Source of the DNA: an uncultured Gammaproteobacteria bacterium
GTDB taxonomy: Bacteria; Patescibacteriota; Patescibacteriia; CAZSQN01
Length of the DNA: 64,000 nucleotides
Direction: 5' to 3'
NCBI GenBank assembly: GCA_964609095.1
Contig: CAZSQN010000003.1
Coordinates: forward strand, 12,687 to 76,686
In this document: positions 25,161-31,402 of the stretch, piece by piece
Numbering within the stretch: the first letter of the stretch is position 1
Layout of the letters: each line of letters starts with the position of its first letter
The notes under the pieces: model-generated
Database searches by the model: none
The model's input: only the letters and a program-made list of their open reading frames with translations
What the model was told of the DNA's origin: nothing
Made by a program: the position numbers and the translations under genes

Positions 25161-26663
25161 ATGATGACAAAAAAGCAAAAACACGTGCTCGATTTTATAA
25201 CCTTTCACCAAGAACGGGAAGGATATGCCCCTTCCCTTGATGAGATACGCAAGAAATTTAAACTTGCGTCTGTTTCAACTGCCCATTTCCACGTATCAAA
25301 ACTCCGCGATTTGGGTTATTTATCCAAAGAAGAAAATAAACCGCGAGCCATTGAAGCGCTTGGCCGCGAAACAATGGTAAAGATTCCGCTTTTAGGAACG
25401 ATCGCCGCCGGCCAACCTATTGAAGCAATTCAAGAAAAAGAGATAATCGCGGTTCCAAAAAGCAAAATTCCTTTTTCGTCAGAGGTTTATGCTCTCCGCG
25501 TAGTCGGAAGCAGTATGATTGACGAAAATATAAACGATGGCGATGTTGTTTTGGTGCGTCAACAGGAAACAGCCGAAAACGGACAAAAAGTCGTGGCTCT
25601 CATAGATAATCACGAAGCAACCTTAAAAAAATTTTACAGAGAAAACGGGTATATTCGATTACAGCCCGCAAACAAAACAATGGAACCGCTTATTTTTAGA
25701 AATGGGCGGGATGTTTCAATTCAAGGAGTTGTGCTGGATGTTATTCGTGATGGCGGTTTTGTGTCTCCGGTAGAAATTTATCCGGATGCAAAACTTCTTA
25801 ATCGAGAAAGAAAAGTCAAAAACCGAGAAGCAAAAGAAAGAACGCGCGGCGGCACAAAATTTCAGAAAGATGCCGTTATGGTTGCGCAAGCAGACGGTAT
25901 TGAAAAATTTACTAATAAAATTATTTGCGGCGACAGTGAAGAAGTTTTGCGTAAAATCCCAACCGGTTCAGTTGATATTATTATTACATCGCCTCCATAT
26001 AATTTTGGTCTGGAATATAAAGACGATAAGAAAAATGATGCGGTTCACTGGGACGAGTATTTTAAGAAGATAAACACAATTTGGAAGGAGTGCGCGCGTG
26101 TTCTAAAACCAGGCGGACGATTGTGCCTCAATGTACAGCCATTGTTTTCAGATTACATTCCGACACATCACCTGATGTCAAAACAACTACTCAATCACGG
26201 TCTTATATGGAAAGGCGAAATTTTGTGGGAAAAAAACAACTATAACTGCAAATATACCGCGTGGGGTAGCTGGAAAAGCCCCAGTATGCCATATTTGAAG
26301 TACACTTGGGAATTTGTTGAGATTTTTTCAAAAGATACGCACAAAAAAGTCGGTGACTCGTCAAAAGCCGATATTACTGGCGATGAGTTTAAAAAATGGG
26401 TTTACGCGAAATGGTCTATTGCCTCCGAACGAAACATGAAAGATTATGATCATCCCGCGATGTTTCCAAAAGAGTTAGCAACACGACTGATGAAACTTTT
26501 CAGCTATCAAGACGATATCGTACTTGATCCATTTAACGGCGCCGGCACAACAACACTTTGCGCCGCAGAAACCGGCAGAAAATATATCGGCATAGATATT
26601 TCGCCTAAATACTGCGAAATCTCTGAAAAACGAATTAAAGAAATTCCAGCGAAGTTATTTTAG
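25161..26663 (+). CDS. LexA-like repressor (wHTH plus S24 autopeptidase) fused in frame to a beta-class N4-C/N6-A DNA methyltransferase.
   Basis: Residues 1-205 form a complete LexA: an HTH, the AAGQP Ala-Gly cleavage site, GSSM serine and LKKF lysine. Residues about 245-500 form the methyltransferase: NKIICGDSEEVLRKIP...IIITSPPYNF (motif IV) followed by C-terminal DPFNGAGTT (motif I). This is the beta-class domain order. No stop separates the two domains. Confidence 0.75.
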   Translation: MMTKKQKHVLDFITFHQEREGYAPSLDEIRKKFKLASVSTAHFHVSKLRDLGYLSKEENKPRAIEALGRETMVKIPLLGTIAAGQPIEAIQEKEIIAVPKSKIPFSSEVYALRVVGSSMIDENINDGDVVLVRQQETAENGQKVVALIDNHEATLKKFYRENGYIRLQPANKTMEPLIFRNGRDVSIQGVVLDVIRDGGFVSPVEIYPDAKLLNRERKVKNREAKERTRGGTKFQKDAVMVAQADGIEKFTNKIICGDSEEVLRKIPTGSVDIIITSPPYNFGLEYKDDKKNDAVHWDEYFKKINTIWKECARVLKPGGRLCLNVQPLFSDYIPTHHLMSKQLLNHGLIWKGEILWEKNNYNCKYTAWGSWKSPSMPYLKYTWEFVEIFSKDTHKKVGDSSKADITGDEFKKWVYAKWSIASERNMKDYDHPAMFPKELATRLMKLFSYQDDIVLDPFNGAGTTTLCAAETGRKYIGIDISPKYCEISEKRIKEIPAKLF

Positions 26664-27329: not shown

Positions 27330-28418
27330 TTAGTCCCCCAACTCCCAACGCAGCTCTTCCAAAAGCTCTTTCTGCCGCCGTGATAATTTTTGCGGAATAT
27401 CAACTAAAATCTCCACCAAGTGGTCGCCTCTACCGGACTTGCCCAAACGCGGCACTCCTTTGCATTTTAATTTCAACATCGTCCCGGGCAAAGTTCCAGC
27501 GGGAATTTTTAACTCCACTTCTCCGTCAACCGTTTCCACGGTCATGCTTCCGCCCAAAACCGCAAACGGATAAGTTATTTTTAATTTGGAAAAGATATCG
27601 TCTCCTTTGCGTTCAAATCTTTTGTCCTTTCTTACTTCTATGTTGATATACAAATCTCCGGCGCTTCCTCCGCGTATCCCCGCTTCTCCTCCGCCCGGAA
27701 CGCGCATAGTGCCGCCATCATCAACTCCGGCCGGAATTTTAACCAAAAACTTTTTCGTGCCTTTGGCAACTCCTGTTCCTCCGCACTTTTTACACTCCTC
27801 TTTTGGCTTGCTCCCCAGCCCGCCGCAGTCGCTACAGGTAACAACCGACTGCATCATGCCGAAAATAGTGCGTGAGGATTGCCTTACCTGGCCGGCTCCG
27901 CCGCAGGTTTTGCAGGTAATCATTTCCGTATTCGGCTCTTTGCCTGCTCCGTCGCACTCTTCGCAGGCAATTTCTTTGTAAAGCTCAACCTCGCGCTCCG
28001 TGCCCGTAACCGCGTCCATCAAGTCAATCGTCATATTCATCTCAATGTCCCGGCCGCGCTTGGAGCGGGTTTTTGTTCCGGTGCCGCCCCGAGATGAGCT
28101 GAAACCGCCTGAAAACATATTTCCCAAAATATCTCCCAGGTCTTCCATATTGATGCCGCCTCCCATTCCGCCAAAACCCTCAAAACCGGAAAATCCGCCT
28201 TGTCCGTTCTGGTCAAAGGCGGTTCCATATTGGTCGTATTGTTTGCGCTTTTTGGCATCGCCCAGCACCTGATACGCTTCATTGATTTCCTTAAACTTGT
28301 CCTGATTTCCGCCTTTATCAGGATGATGCTCGTGCGCGAGCCGGCGAAAGGCCTTTTTAATCTCGTCATCAGTCGCCTCCCGCCCAACTCCTAAGGTTTT
28401 GTAATAATCTTTGGACAT
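27330..28418 (-). CDS. dnaJ: Chaperone DnaJ.
   Basis: J-domain with HPD (AHEHHPDK), a G/F region, and four CxxCxGxG zinc-finger repeats. Confidence 0.95.
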
Positions 28419-28570
28419 GTTTTACTTAATTATTTACAATTATCTCCTGCCTTGATACTCTAAATCCGCGGTGGGGGTGGCTTAGTGTGGAATCTCGCCT
28501 CATCAACGAGGGTTCTCGGGGTGCAACTCCCCGCACCTCCACCGTCTCAAAAATTATTCAAGTATTACTC

Positions 28571-28670
28571 TTGACAATCATAATGATTATTTGCTATACT
28601 AAACATAGTTGATGAGGCGAGTTCCTACTCTAAGTTAGAACTCCGGAAAACCGCAGAAATGCGGTTTTTT
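28571..28670 (+). ncRNA. Candidate small RNA transcription unit: a sigma70-like promoter followed by a rho-independent terminator, inside a 272-bp insertion.
   Basis: TTGACA (28571-28576), an 18-nt spacer, then TATACT (28595-28600). Predicted transcript of about 64 nt ends at AAAACCGCAGAAATGCGGTTTTTT (28647-28670). A 14-nt inverted repeat CTCGCCTCATCAAC / GTTGATGAGGCGAG flanks the promoter. Confidence 0.45.
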
Positions 28671-28690
28671 GGTCTTCTAAATCTCATCTT

Positions 28691-28738
28691 CACTCGCCCC
28701 CGCCCGACTCCTAAGGTTTTGTAATAGTCTTTGGACAT
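28691..28738 (-). repeat. 47-nt direct duplicate (43/47 identical) of the dnaJ start region at 28372-28418, including the ATG and first 10 codons.
   Basis: Copy: CACTCGCCCCCGCCCGACTCCTAAGGTTTTGTAATAGTCTTTGGACAT. Native: AGTCGCCTCCCGCCCAACTCCTAAGGTTTTGTAATAATCTTTGGACAT. Confidence 0.8.
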
Positions 28739-28743
28739 TTCTA

Positions 28744-29457
28744 TTATTTTACCAAATCTATTATTTTTTCTATTGTTTGGGCTAATAGTTTAGATTCATG
28801 CTCTATCCATATAATATCCTTATAACCGGTAAACAGCTCCATTTGTCTATTTATATATCGCAAACATCTTTCTAATATTTTCTGTTTCGCGGTTTCAAAA
28901 TCAATCTCTTTATCCAAATAACTTACAAGCGGAACTACGGCATGGCCGTCTTGCATTACAAGCGTATCTCTATATTTCTTTAAATTTTGAGCGATCTCTT
29001 CAAGCAAACCTTCCTTGAAGGCCAGTTCAACTCTTTGGCTAATCTTCTTCTCTATATCAAAATTGGAGGGAAACTTTAATCCGATAATTTTACAGACTTT
29101 CATTTGTCGATTCAACCGATAGAAGTCCGAAAAATAGGTAGTAGAACCGCCCTCTATTATAGGCACTCCGCCGCTCTTAATAATTTCTAAACACTTATCT
29201 ATCACCATTTCAGAATATTTTATCGGATCAATAATATCTTCATCTGGTTCTAAAAGTTCATAGAGATGTTTCTTAACATCTTTTTCTTTCAGAGTATCCG
29301 ACAATCCCGAACTAATAGGAAAATGCTTAAAAAGATATATCTTATCGAGATTAATAACCTCTCCGTTACCCAGTTGTCTCGCAAGCGCAAAAGCAACAGA
29401 AGTTTTTCCAACTCCAGTAGGTCCAATTATAGCAATCGCGCCTTTGGTCTTGAGCAT
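28744..29457 (-). CDS. miaA: tRNA dimethylallyltransferase (short form).
   Basis: P-loop IAIIGPTGVGKTSVAFALARQLGNGEVINLDKIY. The start is taken at MLKTKGAIA to avoid overlapping dnaK. Confidence 0.75.
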   Translation of the reverse strand: MLKTKGAIAIIGPTGVGKTSVAFALARQLGNGEVINLDKIYLFKHFPISSGLSDTLKEKDVKKHLYELLEPDEDIIDPIKYSEMVIDKCLEIIKSGGVPIIEGGSTTYFSDFYRLNRQMKVCKIIGLKFPSNFDIEKKISQRVELAFKEGLLEEIAQNLKKYRDTLVMQDGHAVVPLVSYLDKEIDFETAKQKILERCLRYINRQMELFTGYKDIIWIEHESKLLAQTIEKIIDLVK

Positions 29458-29488
29458 TAATGGTAAATTATCTATAAACTGTAGGTTT

Positions 29489-31402
29489 TTATTCCTTCTC
29501 TTTAAACTCCGCATCCACGGTCTTTTTGTCGCCACCGTCTTCCTTTTTCTCTTCGGAAGCTGGCGCGCTTGTAGCGGCGTTGGCTTGGCTGTATAATTCC
29601 GCGCCGACTTTTTGCGATACGGTTGCCAGTTCATCTGCCGCCTTTTTCATAGCCGCGCCGTCTTCGCCTGCAAGCGTTTTCTTAAGCTCGACAAGTTTTT
29701 CTTCTATGGCCTTTTTATCATCTTCCTTGATTTTGTCCGCGTGCTCCTTGAGCATTTTCTCCGTGGTATAGCCAACCGTCTCGGCCAAATTCTTGGTCTC
29801 AATCAATTCTTTCTTTTTCTTATCCTCGTCCGCGTGCAGCTCCGCGTCATGCTTCATTTTCTCAATTTCTTCTTTGGAAAGTCCGGAAGAAGCAGTAATG
29901 GTTATTTTCTGTTCTTTATTTGTGGCTTTGTCCTTGGCTTTTACGTTCAAAATTCCGTTCGCGTCCAAGTCAAAAGAAACCTCCACCTGCGGCATGCCGC
30001 GCGGCGCCGGAGGAATCCCGTCCAAAATAAATCTGCCCAAGGTCTTGTTGTCAGAGGCCATGGAGCGTTCGCCCTGCAAAACATGGATTTCCACCGAGGT
30101 TTGTCCGTCGGCGGCAGTTGAAAAAACTTGCGATTTGGAAGTCGGGATAGTTGTGTTTCTGGTTATAAGCGGGGTCATTACCGAACCCAATGTCTCAATG
30201 CCAAGCGAAAGCGGGGTTACATCCAGTAGCAAGAGTTCGCCCTTGATGTCGCCCTGCAAATTTCCCGCCTGTACCGCGGCTCCAATGGCCACCACTTCGT
30301 CAGGATTTACGGAAACATTGGGCTTTTTGCCAAAAAACTTTTCAACAGACGACTGCACAAGAGGCATTCTGGTCATTCCGCCGACAAGGATAATTTCGTT
30401 AATGGCGCCGGCTGTAAGCTTGGCGTCTTCCAAGGCCTTGCGGCAGGGAGCCATGGTTTTCTCCACCAAGTCCCCGACCAGCTCTTCCAGCTTGGCGCGG
30501 GTCATCTTCATTACCAAATGCTTTGGCCCGTTGGCGTCGGAGGTGATAAACGGCTGGTTTATCTCCGTCTCCATTGTGGAAGAAAGCTCAATCTTGGCTT
30601 TTTCCGCCGCCTCTTTAATGCGCTGCAAGGCGAGCGGGTCCTTGCTCAAATCAATTCCTTCGGTTTTTTTAAATTCGTCAACAATCCAGACAATCACGCG
30701 CTGGTCAAAATCGTCTCCGCCCAGGTGCGTGTCGCCGTTGGTGGCTTTGACCTCAACCGTGTTCTGGTTCGCGGCCGCGTCAAAAGCGATCTCCAGCACG
30801 GAAATGTCAAAAGTTCCTCCGCCCAAATCGTAAACAACAATTTTCTCGTCTTTCTTTCTGTCAAAGCCGTAAGCCAAAGCCGCTGCCGTTGGCTCGTTTA
30901 AAATGCGCCTGACTTTGAGTCCGGCGATCTCTCCCGCGTCTTTGGTCGCCTGGCGCTGGGAGTCGTCAAAATAAGCCGGAACGGTAATAACCGCTTCCGT
31001 TATCTTTTCTCCCAAGCGCTCTTCGGCATCGGCTTTTAATTTTTGCAAAACCATAGCAGAAATTTCCTGCGGAGTATATTCCTTGTCTCCCATTTTAATC
31101 TTCACGCCTTCCCCCGCCTTCACAATTTCGTAAGGCATTAATTTTTTGTCGCGCTCCACTTCGCTGTCTCCCCAGCGCCTTCCGATAAGGCGCTTGATGG
31201 ATGAAAGCGTGTTCTTGGGATTGACAACCGCCTGGCGCTTGGCAAGCAAGCCCACGAGTTTTTCGCCTGTTTTGGAGGTAGCGACAATGGAAGGCGTTGT
31301 TCTTGCGCCTTCTTTATTTTCCAAAACCTTGGGCGCGCCGCCCTCTACGACCGCCACGCAAGAGTTAGTCGTACCTAAATCTATTCCGAGTATTTTTGGC
31401 AT
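29489..31402 (-). CDS. dnaK: Chaperone DnaK (Hsp70).
   Basis: [26 protein letters not shown] and the complete Hsp70 signature set. 637 aa. Confidence 0.97.

Follow-up and report, generated by a model that had tools for sequence, protein, structure and literature searches.

Which element separates dnaJ from its upstream neighbor in the genome of this Candidate Phyla Radiation (CPR)/Patescibacteria bacterium, and by which route did it arrive there? In the analyzed stretch of contig CAZSQN010000003.1 (64,000 nucleotides, referred to as the window), the genes of the heat-shock operon follow each other on the minus strand as hrcA-grpE-dnaK-IPT/MiaA-like gene-dnaJ. Between the IPT gene and dnaJ the operon carries an insert of 272 bp (28419-28690), which is bracketed by two copies of the dnaJ 5' end. 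We favor, with middling confidence, the reading that this insert is a self-contained, horizontally mobile two-RNA cassette found across CPR/Patescibacteria, in which a cognate antisense RNA would inactivate a mimic of the tRNA-like domain of transfer-messenger RNA (tmRNA), possibly in the manner of a toxin-antitoxin system. The parts of the cassette are listed below, with the evidence on which each assignment is based.

28429..28679, plus strand: inserted cassette (P1, RNA-1, P2, RNA-2 and terminator), delimited by blastn edges
28433..28461, plus strand: predicted promoter P1, TTTACA-N17-TACTCT with a TG one base upstream of the -10 hexamer, from conserved hexamers
28468..28472, plus strand: leader GCGGU of 5 nt, pairing with the trailer ACCGU (28541-28545), from covariation
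28473..28543, plus strand: RNA-1, a tRNA-like RNA of 71 nt, from cloverleaf fold and covariation
28473-28479/28534-28540, plus strand: acceptor stem of RNA-1, GGGGGUG/CACCUCC, with G3:U70
28480-28488, plus strand: mini D hairpin of RNA-1, 2-3 bp
28489-28497/28507-28516, plus strand: long stem of RNA-1, 9-10 bp with a bulge
28498-28506, plus strand: loop of RNA-1, 9 nt (7-9 nt across the cassettes)
28517-28533, plus strand: T arm of RNA-1, CGGGG-UGCAACU-CCCCG (5-bp stem, 7-nt loop)
28541-28543, plus strand: A73-C-C of RNA-1
28571..28600, plus strand: predicted promoter P2, TTGACA-N18-TATACT, 11/12 with a TG upstream of the -10 hexamer
28608..28673, plus strand: RNA-2, a predicted small RNA (sRNA) of about 65 nt with 5' seed, internal hairpin, A-rich linker and terminator hairpin (28647-28670), from folding and pairing

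The extent of the unit was derived from its relatives. A blastn search with 28419-28690 aligned query positions 10-12 to 258-261 with the cassettes of the genomes L031 (83.6% over 250 nt), L028 (76.7%) and L010 (73.5%). Since the alignments to other cassettes begin and end at these points, the cassette is regarded as a unit of about 250 bp (28429-28679). The original prediction, which had been made from the letters of this stretch, had named additional copies of the segment as something to look for; the insert is present in a single copy within the 64-kb window, and homologues occur in other CPR genomes. Further relatives were sought with the exact string of T arm and acceptor in one genome per species, comprising 185,579 species genomes. 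This search returned 20 loci, one of them a canonical Thermaerobacter tmRNA and 19 of them CPR contigs, which hold 21 cassette instances with the same order and spacing of parts. Complete tandem cassettes make up 18 of the 21 instances, while one is divergent (L012) and two are incomplete (L025, L029). The contigs are labeled as Saccharibacteria, Uhrbacteria, Doudnabacteria, Yanofskybacteria, Sungiibacteriota and Parcubacteria metagenome-assembled genomes (MAGs), and one contig of 3 kb was binned as Bdellovibrionota. No gene neighborhood conserved across the loci was found. The cassettes in other CPR genomes lie between unrelated core genes, and hence the unit is not specific to the dnaJ leader.

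RNA-1 shows the cloverleaf fold of a tRNA-like molecule. Across the cassettes, RNAalifold gave this fold with 10 pairs that carry double changes, most of them in the long stem, and RNA-1 has a minimum free energy of -36.5 kcal/mol (z -2.8). A covariance model of RNA-1 (R1) scored the window at 85.6 bits on the plus strand only; across the cassettes, the scores were 82-102 bits for this strand compared to at most 37 bits for the reverse strand. The G3:U70 pair is present in 20 of 20 cassettes, and the final A of the CCA end is encoded in 5 of 20. Leader and trailer covary as well, with CG in 15 cassettes and UA in 3 (GCGGU/ACCGC vs GUGGU/ACCAC), by which the acceptor stem reaches 12 bp. The hexamers of the predicted promoter P1 are conserved, its spacers are variable and a TG often lies upstream; in 17 of 21 cassettes, exactly 11 nt separate the end of its -10-like hexamer from G1 of RNA-1. 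Both P1 and the RNA-1 gene had been missed in the original prediction, which described a single transcription unit; RNA-1 is the pairing partner of the sRNA that it did describe. Another candidate promoter, TGGACA-N17-TACAAT (28412-28440, plus strand, 10/12), was set aside in favor of P1, as it is specific to the window, consists partly of dnaJ sequence, straddling the dnaJ start and the cassette edge, and is not conserved in other cassettes.

A canonical tRNA was ruled out for RNA-1, which has a bulged stem of 9-10 bp in place of the anticodon arm and a D hairpin of 2-3 bp, and which neither ARAGORN nor Rfam calls as a tRNA. A scan of the window with ARAGORN and with Rfam at gathering thresholds showed no tRNA or tmRNA at the site (Rfam gave two ordinary tRNAs elsewhere), and an Rfam scan of the region by E-value gave nothing significant there. 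ARAGORN recovered the tmRNAs of L026 and of viral loci, and none in the window or the CPR loci. Below the thresholds, the tmRNA family RF00023 aligns end to end with 28473-28544 at 12.3 bits (E 0.001 with the stretch alone searched; gathering score 47), RF04321 reached 19.3 bits compared to a gathering score of 47, and the best Rfam match overall was mascRNA with 19.6 bits, also below threshold. Rfam 15 contains no family for RNA-1 or RNA-2.

RNA-1 resembles tmRNA in several elements. The 5' end of the Thermaerobacter tmRNA (GGGGGUGAUUCAG...), its 5' strand GGGGGUG and its 3' end match RNA-1, G3:U70 and A73-CC agree as well, as does the T arm (CGGGG-UGCRAHU-CCCCG), and the 3' end is also that of permuted tmRNAs. 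In contrast to tmRNA, RNA-1 comprises no mRNA-like domain, no resume codon, no tag reading frame with stop codon and none of the pseudoknots PK1-PK4; the tmRNA helix P2 is replaced by a 9-10-bp stem with a loop of 7-9 nt, and the D region by a mini hairpin. Furthermore, RNA-1 has a dedicated antisense partner gene, and we know of no tmRNA with such a partner. Although RNA-1 qualifies as a tRNA-like domain of the tmRNA type, it was not assigned to tmRNA, because message and pseudoknots are absent and the score stays below the Rfam threshold. A tmRNA derivative reduced to the tRNA-like domain occurs in jakobid mitochondria (mt-tmRNA), where it is encoded by a circularly permuted gene and has no partner sRNA. 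RNA-1 likewise consists of the tRNA-like domain alone, whereas the jakobid RNA is mitochondrial, and no Rfam match of RNA-1 to that family was obtained. Other tRNA-like non-coding RNAs, such as mascRNA, bacterial YrlA and viral tRNA-like structures, resemble RNA-1 in that they possess an acceptor/T-arm module, while their D and anticodon arms are reduced. They differ in that the sub-threshold matches are limited to T arm and acceptor, in their other partners and biology, and in having no antisense partner gene.

The second gene of the cassette starts about 60 nt downstream of RNA-1, where P2, the near-consensus promoter of the original prediction, is found again and is predicted to be stronger than P1. 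As for P1, the positions of the hexamers are conserved across the cassettes and the spacers vary. The motif TTGAC followed by A, G or T lies 35-38 nt upstream of the start of the complementarity to RNA-1 in 19 of 20 cassettes (the value of 43 for L027 is an artefact of seed calling); counted from the -35 hexamer, the complementarity thus begins at the predicted transcription start of P2. Folded alone, RNA-2 shows 7 free nucleotides at the 5' end, whose complement is found in the RNA-1 loop, and two hairpins (z -3.8). The predicted terminator consists of a 12-bp hairpin, AAAACCGCA-GAAA-UGCGGUUUU, followed by U's. A scan for consensus terminators reported none, which can be explained by the upstream A-tract pairing with the U-tract. 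A hairpin with a T-run is present at the matching position in related cassettes. Altogether, the predicted transcript of about 65 nt agrees with the transcript of about 64 nt with intrinsic terminator that had been proposed before. Between RNA-1 and the -35 hexamer of P2, a motif resembling a DnaA box (TTATCCACA, at most 1 mismatch) was observed in 10 of 20 cassettes (L010, L015, L018, L021, L024 and L027-L031), where it precedes the hexamer by 3-9 nt. Its counterpart in the window (28553-28561) is degenerate, TTATTCAAG. Possibly, a regulator of the sRNA promoter acts at this motif.

The two RNAs of the cassette are complementary and have changed in concert. The exact 14-nt inverted repeat around the promoter, reported in the original prediction, is present at 28494-28507 and 28608-28621 (0.03 expected by chance), so that the seed of RNA-2 (28608-28621) is the exact complement of RNA-1 28494-28507. 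This repeat is the core of a 34-nt repeat with 79% complementarity. Over about 34 nt, counted from its first nucleotide, RNA-2 is complementary to three parts of RNA-1, namely the loop, the long stem (5' strand) and the D hairpin. For the pairing test, the 5' half of RNA-1 was joined to the first 38 nt of RNA-2 and folded with RNAalifold across the cassettes. The resulting duplex comprised 25 pairs, 20 of them with compensatory changes on both sides, and 95% of the cells were paired. None of 500 shuffles was as good, and sliding the partner by 1-3 columns left 28-43% paired. G:U pairs (47) far exceed A:C mismatches (12), which suggests that the pairing acts at the RNA level and on this strand. 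The mean duplex energy was -48.8 kcal/mol for cognate compared to -30.3 kcal/mol for non-cognate partners, and the cognate partner ranked first of 20 in 14 cases and among the top three in 19. The same specificity is seen within single genomes: cross-pairing is absent between the two tandem cassettes of L016 and between the two cassettes of L022, which lie about 1 kb apart (about -29 compared to -40 to -51 kcal/mol). A read-through transcript with both RNAs folds as a long duplex (-81.9 kcal/mol, z -6.3), in which the tRNA-like fold is lost. Since both structures use the 5' strand of the RNA-1 long stem, cloverleaf and duplex exclude each other.

The divergent cassette of L012 (3573-3800) allows a distinction between effects in cis and in trans. 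Here, the minus strand encodes RNA-1 and the plus strand RNA-2; the two genes stand head to head and have a promoter region in common, and their complementarity is a direct repeat at the DNA level. Because RNA-2 is transcribed divergently in this case, it is regarded as an independent gene acting in trans, and since the repeat is direct, a DNA cruciform or an inversion site is no general explanation. This bears on the possibility that the insert is a cis-acting device of dnaJ, i.e. a structure of the 5' untranslated region, an invertible promoter or an antisense control of the heat-shock operon. Such a device would fit the position at the IPT/dnaK-dnaJ junction in two genomes (window and L010) and the inverted repeat that brackets the promoter. 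However, the structures score on the strand opposite to dnaJ, and read in the dnaJ sense the G:U pairs would become A:C mismatches. The arms of the repeat are only 79% matched, besides being direct in L012, the orientation is identical in the two assemblies of the strain, and on the other 19 contigs neither dnaK nor dnaJ was seen among the annotated neighbors of the cassette. We consider the cis-acting device the least probable of the readings. The original prediction is supported in that the insert carries a predicted sRNA unit inside the heat-shock operon, which is autonomous and antisense to the operon.

A further feature of RNA-2 leads to readings in which the two RNAs cooperate. In 21 of 22 cases (window 28609-28614; L017 has no start codon), ATG, GTG or TTG, never CTG, is found 9-12 nt after the -10 hexamer of P2 and 1-2 nt from the predicted 5' end, and the RNA-1 loop holds the matching CAU, CAC or CAA opposite to this start codon. 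The start codon may be linked to leaderless initiation or to ribosome rescue. It would be expected in a bimolecular functional complex, for example a split tmRNA, in which RNA-2 serves as a leaderless mini-message on the anticodon-like loop of RNA-1, and an open reading frame (ORF) of 5-9 codons, as present in 14 of 22 cases, would suit such a message. However, the frame passes the terminator in 7 of 22 cases, and since the stop codons are not conserved in frame, RNA-2 was not called coding. The conservation of the peptide is no greater than the RNA pairing imposes; antisense segment, hairpin closure, linker and terminator already account for all of RNA-2, and the full 34-bp duplex abolishes the tRNA-like fold. 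A cooperating complex therefore appears quite improbable. A bolder proposal, which we regard as doubtful, comes in two forms. In the first, the cassette would be a two-molecule relative of tmRNA, whose alanine-accepting RNA-1 docks its CAU/CAC/CAA loop on the AUG/GUG/UUG of leaderless RNA-2, and either provides stalled ribosomes with a detachable message in the form of RNA-2 (split trans-translation) or competes with initiator tRNA for RNA-2. In the second, it would be the first RNA-only toxin-antitoxin system whose toxin is a tmRNA mimic that jams ribosome rescue.

The route by which the cassette reached the operon can be followed in its flanks, which comprise the following features.

27330..28418, minus strand: dnaJ, functional gene of 362 aa (Pfam DnaJ, DnaJ_CXXCXGXG, DnaJ_C)
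28350..28428, minus strand: repeat copy A, functional dnaJ 5' end (codons 1-23) with 10 nt upstream, from local alignment; 94% identical to the dnaJ start of L008
28671..28746, minus strand: repeat copy B, decayed dnaJ pseudo-5'-end (ATG 28738) right after the IPT stop; 86% identical to copy A and to L008
28744..29457, minus strand: IPT/MiaA-like gene of 237 aa (Pfam IPPT/IPT; gene call in L001; L008 orthologue 75% identical)

The double occurrence of the 47-nt dnaJ 5' end was confirmed with about 91% identity and one indel, and the true repeat proved to be longer. A repeat search delivered a direct core of 40 nt with 95% identity (28379-28418 vs 28699-28738). Local alignment extended it to about 79 nt (28350-28428 vs 28671-28746) with a score of 92, compared to 27 for the best of 500 shuffles, so that it runs from the IPT stop codon through to dnaJ codon 23. 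The edges of the cassette coincide with the inner ends of the two repeats. Copy B carries a 1-nt deletion and an in-frame TAG; these changes and its identity of 86% to L008, compared to 94% for copy A, mark it as a dead, decaying dnaJ fragment. L008 is the nearest genome with the same IPT gene (IPT 75%, DnaJ 80% identical). There, the IPT stop is followed by AAAA and the dnaJ ATG, with neither insert nor repeat, and the real dnaJ starts at the position that matches copy B. Owing to this empty site in a sister genome, which contains no 47-nt duplicate either, the segment is an insertion, as the original prediction had proposed. The duplicated dnaJ start is a scar that the arriving cassette left behind, and no regulatory repeat.

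The junction upstream of dnaJ varies among related genomes, being empty in some and holding an IPT gene, as in L008, or another element in others. At the dnaK-dnaJ junction, dnaJ directly adjoins the upstream gene in L007 and L163, a 323-aa Abi_C-like gene is found in L164, a GC-rich palindromic spacer of 175 nt in L165 and a homologous RNA cassette in L010, for which a dnaJ duplication was tested by alignment and was not significant. The dnaK-dnaJ junction is an insertion hot spot in this clade. The arrangement in the window itself is reproduced in L002, an independent assembly of the same strain, in which repeat and insert show the same order and orientation, and an identical DnaJ protein is present in NCBI, from the Candidatus Uhrbacteria MAG GCA_016181485.1. 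For the IPT gene, the longest ORF (28744-29634, 296 aa) shares about 145 nt with the 3' end of dnaK (29489-31402, minus strand). A protein of 237 aa that begins at 29457 is favored by the orthologue as well as by the public gene call.

Direct repeats of the end of a neighboring gene flank 3 of 20 cassettes, with 79 nt in the window, 53 nt in L015 (5655-5707/5975-6027) and 46 nt in L027 (6684-6729/7128-7173); the latter two are diverged repeats of the neighbor gene's 3' end. Together with the presence/absence polymorphism and the small size, these repeats resemble the traces of a miniature inverted-repeat transposable element (MITE) or another transposable element with target-site duplication, as put forward in the original prediction. 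Of this proposal, the duplication stands, since it accompanies the insert here as it does at two other cassettes. The MITE itself does not. The cassette ends (ATTATTTACA... and ...TTTTTTGGTTTTT) comprise no terminal inverted repeats, and the 14-nt inverted repeat, which had been seen as a feature of the element, is internal and reflects the complementarity of the two RNAs (a direct repeat in L012). The duplications of 46-79 bp, about 79 bp in the window, are diverged and vary in length by site; the 64 kb contain a single copy, no nearby transposase was seen, blastn gave no match to the cassette in phage and plasmid collections, and the internal sequence consists of two covarying structured RNA genes. 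A MITE-like origin is thus largely refuted and very improbable. Long and diverged duplications at different target genes would fit a duplicative illegitimate insertion better than the action of a transposase or a site-specific integrase.

Several observations suggest that the cassette is a mobile, accessory element. With 19 of 185,579 species genomes, the exact pattern is rare, the dnaJ locus contains the cassette in some close relatives and lacks it in others, two genomes carry two non-cross-pairing cassettes each, flanking repeats occur, and one copy is decayed. The latter, a half-cassette in L025 (4100-4260, minus strand), has kept only the T arm and the 3' acceptor strand of RNA-1 right after the stop of a 101-aa ORF, along with intact P2 and RNA-2, and there is no complementary partner within 8 kb. 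Relatedness does not predict the types of loop and seed: the window differs in type from L010 and shares its type with contigs labeled as Saccharibacteria, where MAG labels may be unreliable. Beyond bacterial genomes, a scan of viral contigs found the string in 11 permuted two-piece tmRNA genes and one GC-rich chance match, and no cassette. A metagenome scan with the loose pattern TCCCCNCNNCTCCACC-N(3-33)-TTGAC gave tRNA-Ala genes, canonical tmRNAs and chance matches, with no cassette among the matches listed.

The same signs of mobility count against RNA-1 as a housekeeping minimal tmRNA, i.e. a CPR ssrA cut down to the tRNA-like domain, which would rescue stalled ribosomes with SmpB and be tuned by RNA-2. 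Against this reading stand the rarity of the exact pattern, the variation between close relatives, the duplicates that do not cross-pair, the decayed copy of L025 and the flanking duplications. On the other side, acceptor, G3:U70, A73 and T arm are all tmRNA-like, the neighbors include core translation genes such as those of AlaRS, a release factor, L25 and L31, and neither ARAGORN nor Rfam detected a canonical tmRNA, be it in the window or in the CPR loci examined. However, these loci represent a small fraction of any genome, so that this absence is uninformative, and CPR genomes are usually annotated with a normal tmRNA. For smpB, a tblastn search of the window and the cassette loci with an E. 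coli SmpB query gave no hit. We therefore rank the antisense-controlled accessory cassette first and the regulated minimal tmRNA second, the latter as possible, if unlikely.

A number of points weigh against the accessory cassette. The D region of RNA-1 does not comprise the usual D-loop motif of tmRNA, and the leader pairs with A73-C-C, so that the 12-bp stem might stay closed in mature RNA-1, which would preclude charging. Part of the invariance of T arm and acceptor is built in, since the string search demanded them. The neighbors are core and often translation-related genes (L25, L31 with a release factor, AlaRS, IleRS, KsgA, FtsW), and no integrase, transposase or other mobile-element genes were found near the cassettes, which also fits a housekeeping RNA. 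Finally, both promoters and the terminator are predictions, and toxicity, alanylation and SmpB binding of RNA-1 are hypothetical.

With these reservations, the antisense-controlled cassette may be pictured as follows. P1 would transcribe RNA-1, and the stronger P2 would transcribe RNA-2. RNA-1 is the putative effector. Its G3:U70, its A73 and its tmRNA-type T arm suggest that it is probably charged with alanine and engages the tmRNA partners SmpB, EF-Tu and the ribosome, to which it would offer no message. RNA-2 would be the cognate antisense antidote or regulator, whose free 5' tail nucleates on the RNA-1 loop and then invades the stem. By this, RNA-1 would change from the tRNA-like fold to a duplex of about 34 bp and hence become inactive; the duplex would probably be exposed to a double-strand-specific RNase and is a likely substrate of RNase III. 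The pair could thereby behave as an RNA-RNA toxin-antitoxin or addiction cassette. As to its arrival, the cassette would have come into the IPT-dnaJ junction with a duplicative insertion, in which about 79 bp of the junction were copied and one intact dnaJ start and one decaying copy were left, for example through homology-anchored recombination after DNA uptake.

In its presumed mode of action, the cassette comes closest to antisense RNA pairs and RNA-RNA antidote systems. Known pairs of this kind are RNAI/RNAII and CopA/CopT, the type I systems ibs/sib and zor/orz, and the 'type VIII' SdsR/RyeA. Like the cassette, they consist of two small adjacent units with the stronger promoter on the antisense side, form an extended duplex from a free tail or loop, and are strictly cognate, such that tandem paralogues do not cross-react. 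Their loci are likewise patchy, insertion-prone and sometimes decayed. In contrast to these pairs, the target in the cassette is a tRNA/tmRNA mimic instead of an mRNA for a toxic peptide or a replication primer, and the partners are encoded side by side instead of overlapping. A type I toxin-antitoxin system was ruled out, as RNA-1 is conserved as a structure and not as a reading frame, and the mini-ORFs of RNA-2 comprise 5-9 codons without a conserved frame. A toxin-like, normally blocked role of RNA-1 may be surmised from the mutually exclusive folds and from the L025 copy, which has lost the 5' half of RNA-1 and has kept RNA-2.

Two side observations concern the wider sequence context. In several samples, the short-read Logan contigs of the same strain (L003-L006) end between about 28499 (L006) and about 28545 (L004) of the window, i.e. 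in or just after RNA-1. This points to other community members with the same conserved RNA-1 sequence, at which the assembly graph breaks. Further downstream of dnaJ, 25161-26663 (plus strand) forms a single ORF of 500 aa that unites three domains (LexA DNA-binding, S24 peptidase and N6/N4 DNA methyltransferase), of which the gene call of the public contig spans only the 327-aa methylase part. This ORF may be a LexA-methylase fusion.

The CPR/Patescibacteria represent a large share of bacterial diversity, and very few of their non-coding RNAs are known. Full-text literature searches on tmRNA and tRNA-like RNAs in CPR gave no description of the cassette; the sole relevant item was a tmRNA survey of 2014, which omits CPR. 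The cassette is a compact and recurrent RNA-only unit with strong covariation that the standard annotation of tRNA, tmRNA and Rfam families misses altogether. If RNA-1 is charged and bound by SmpB, it would be a natural stand-alone tRNA-like domain of a bacterial tmRNA, acting either as a minimal rescue RNA or as an inhibitor of rescue. RNA-2 would be, to our knowledge, the first dedicated antisense regulator of a tmRNA-type RNA, and the non-cross-pairing combinations of loop and seed represent a natural set of programmable RNA-RNA specificities.

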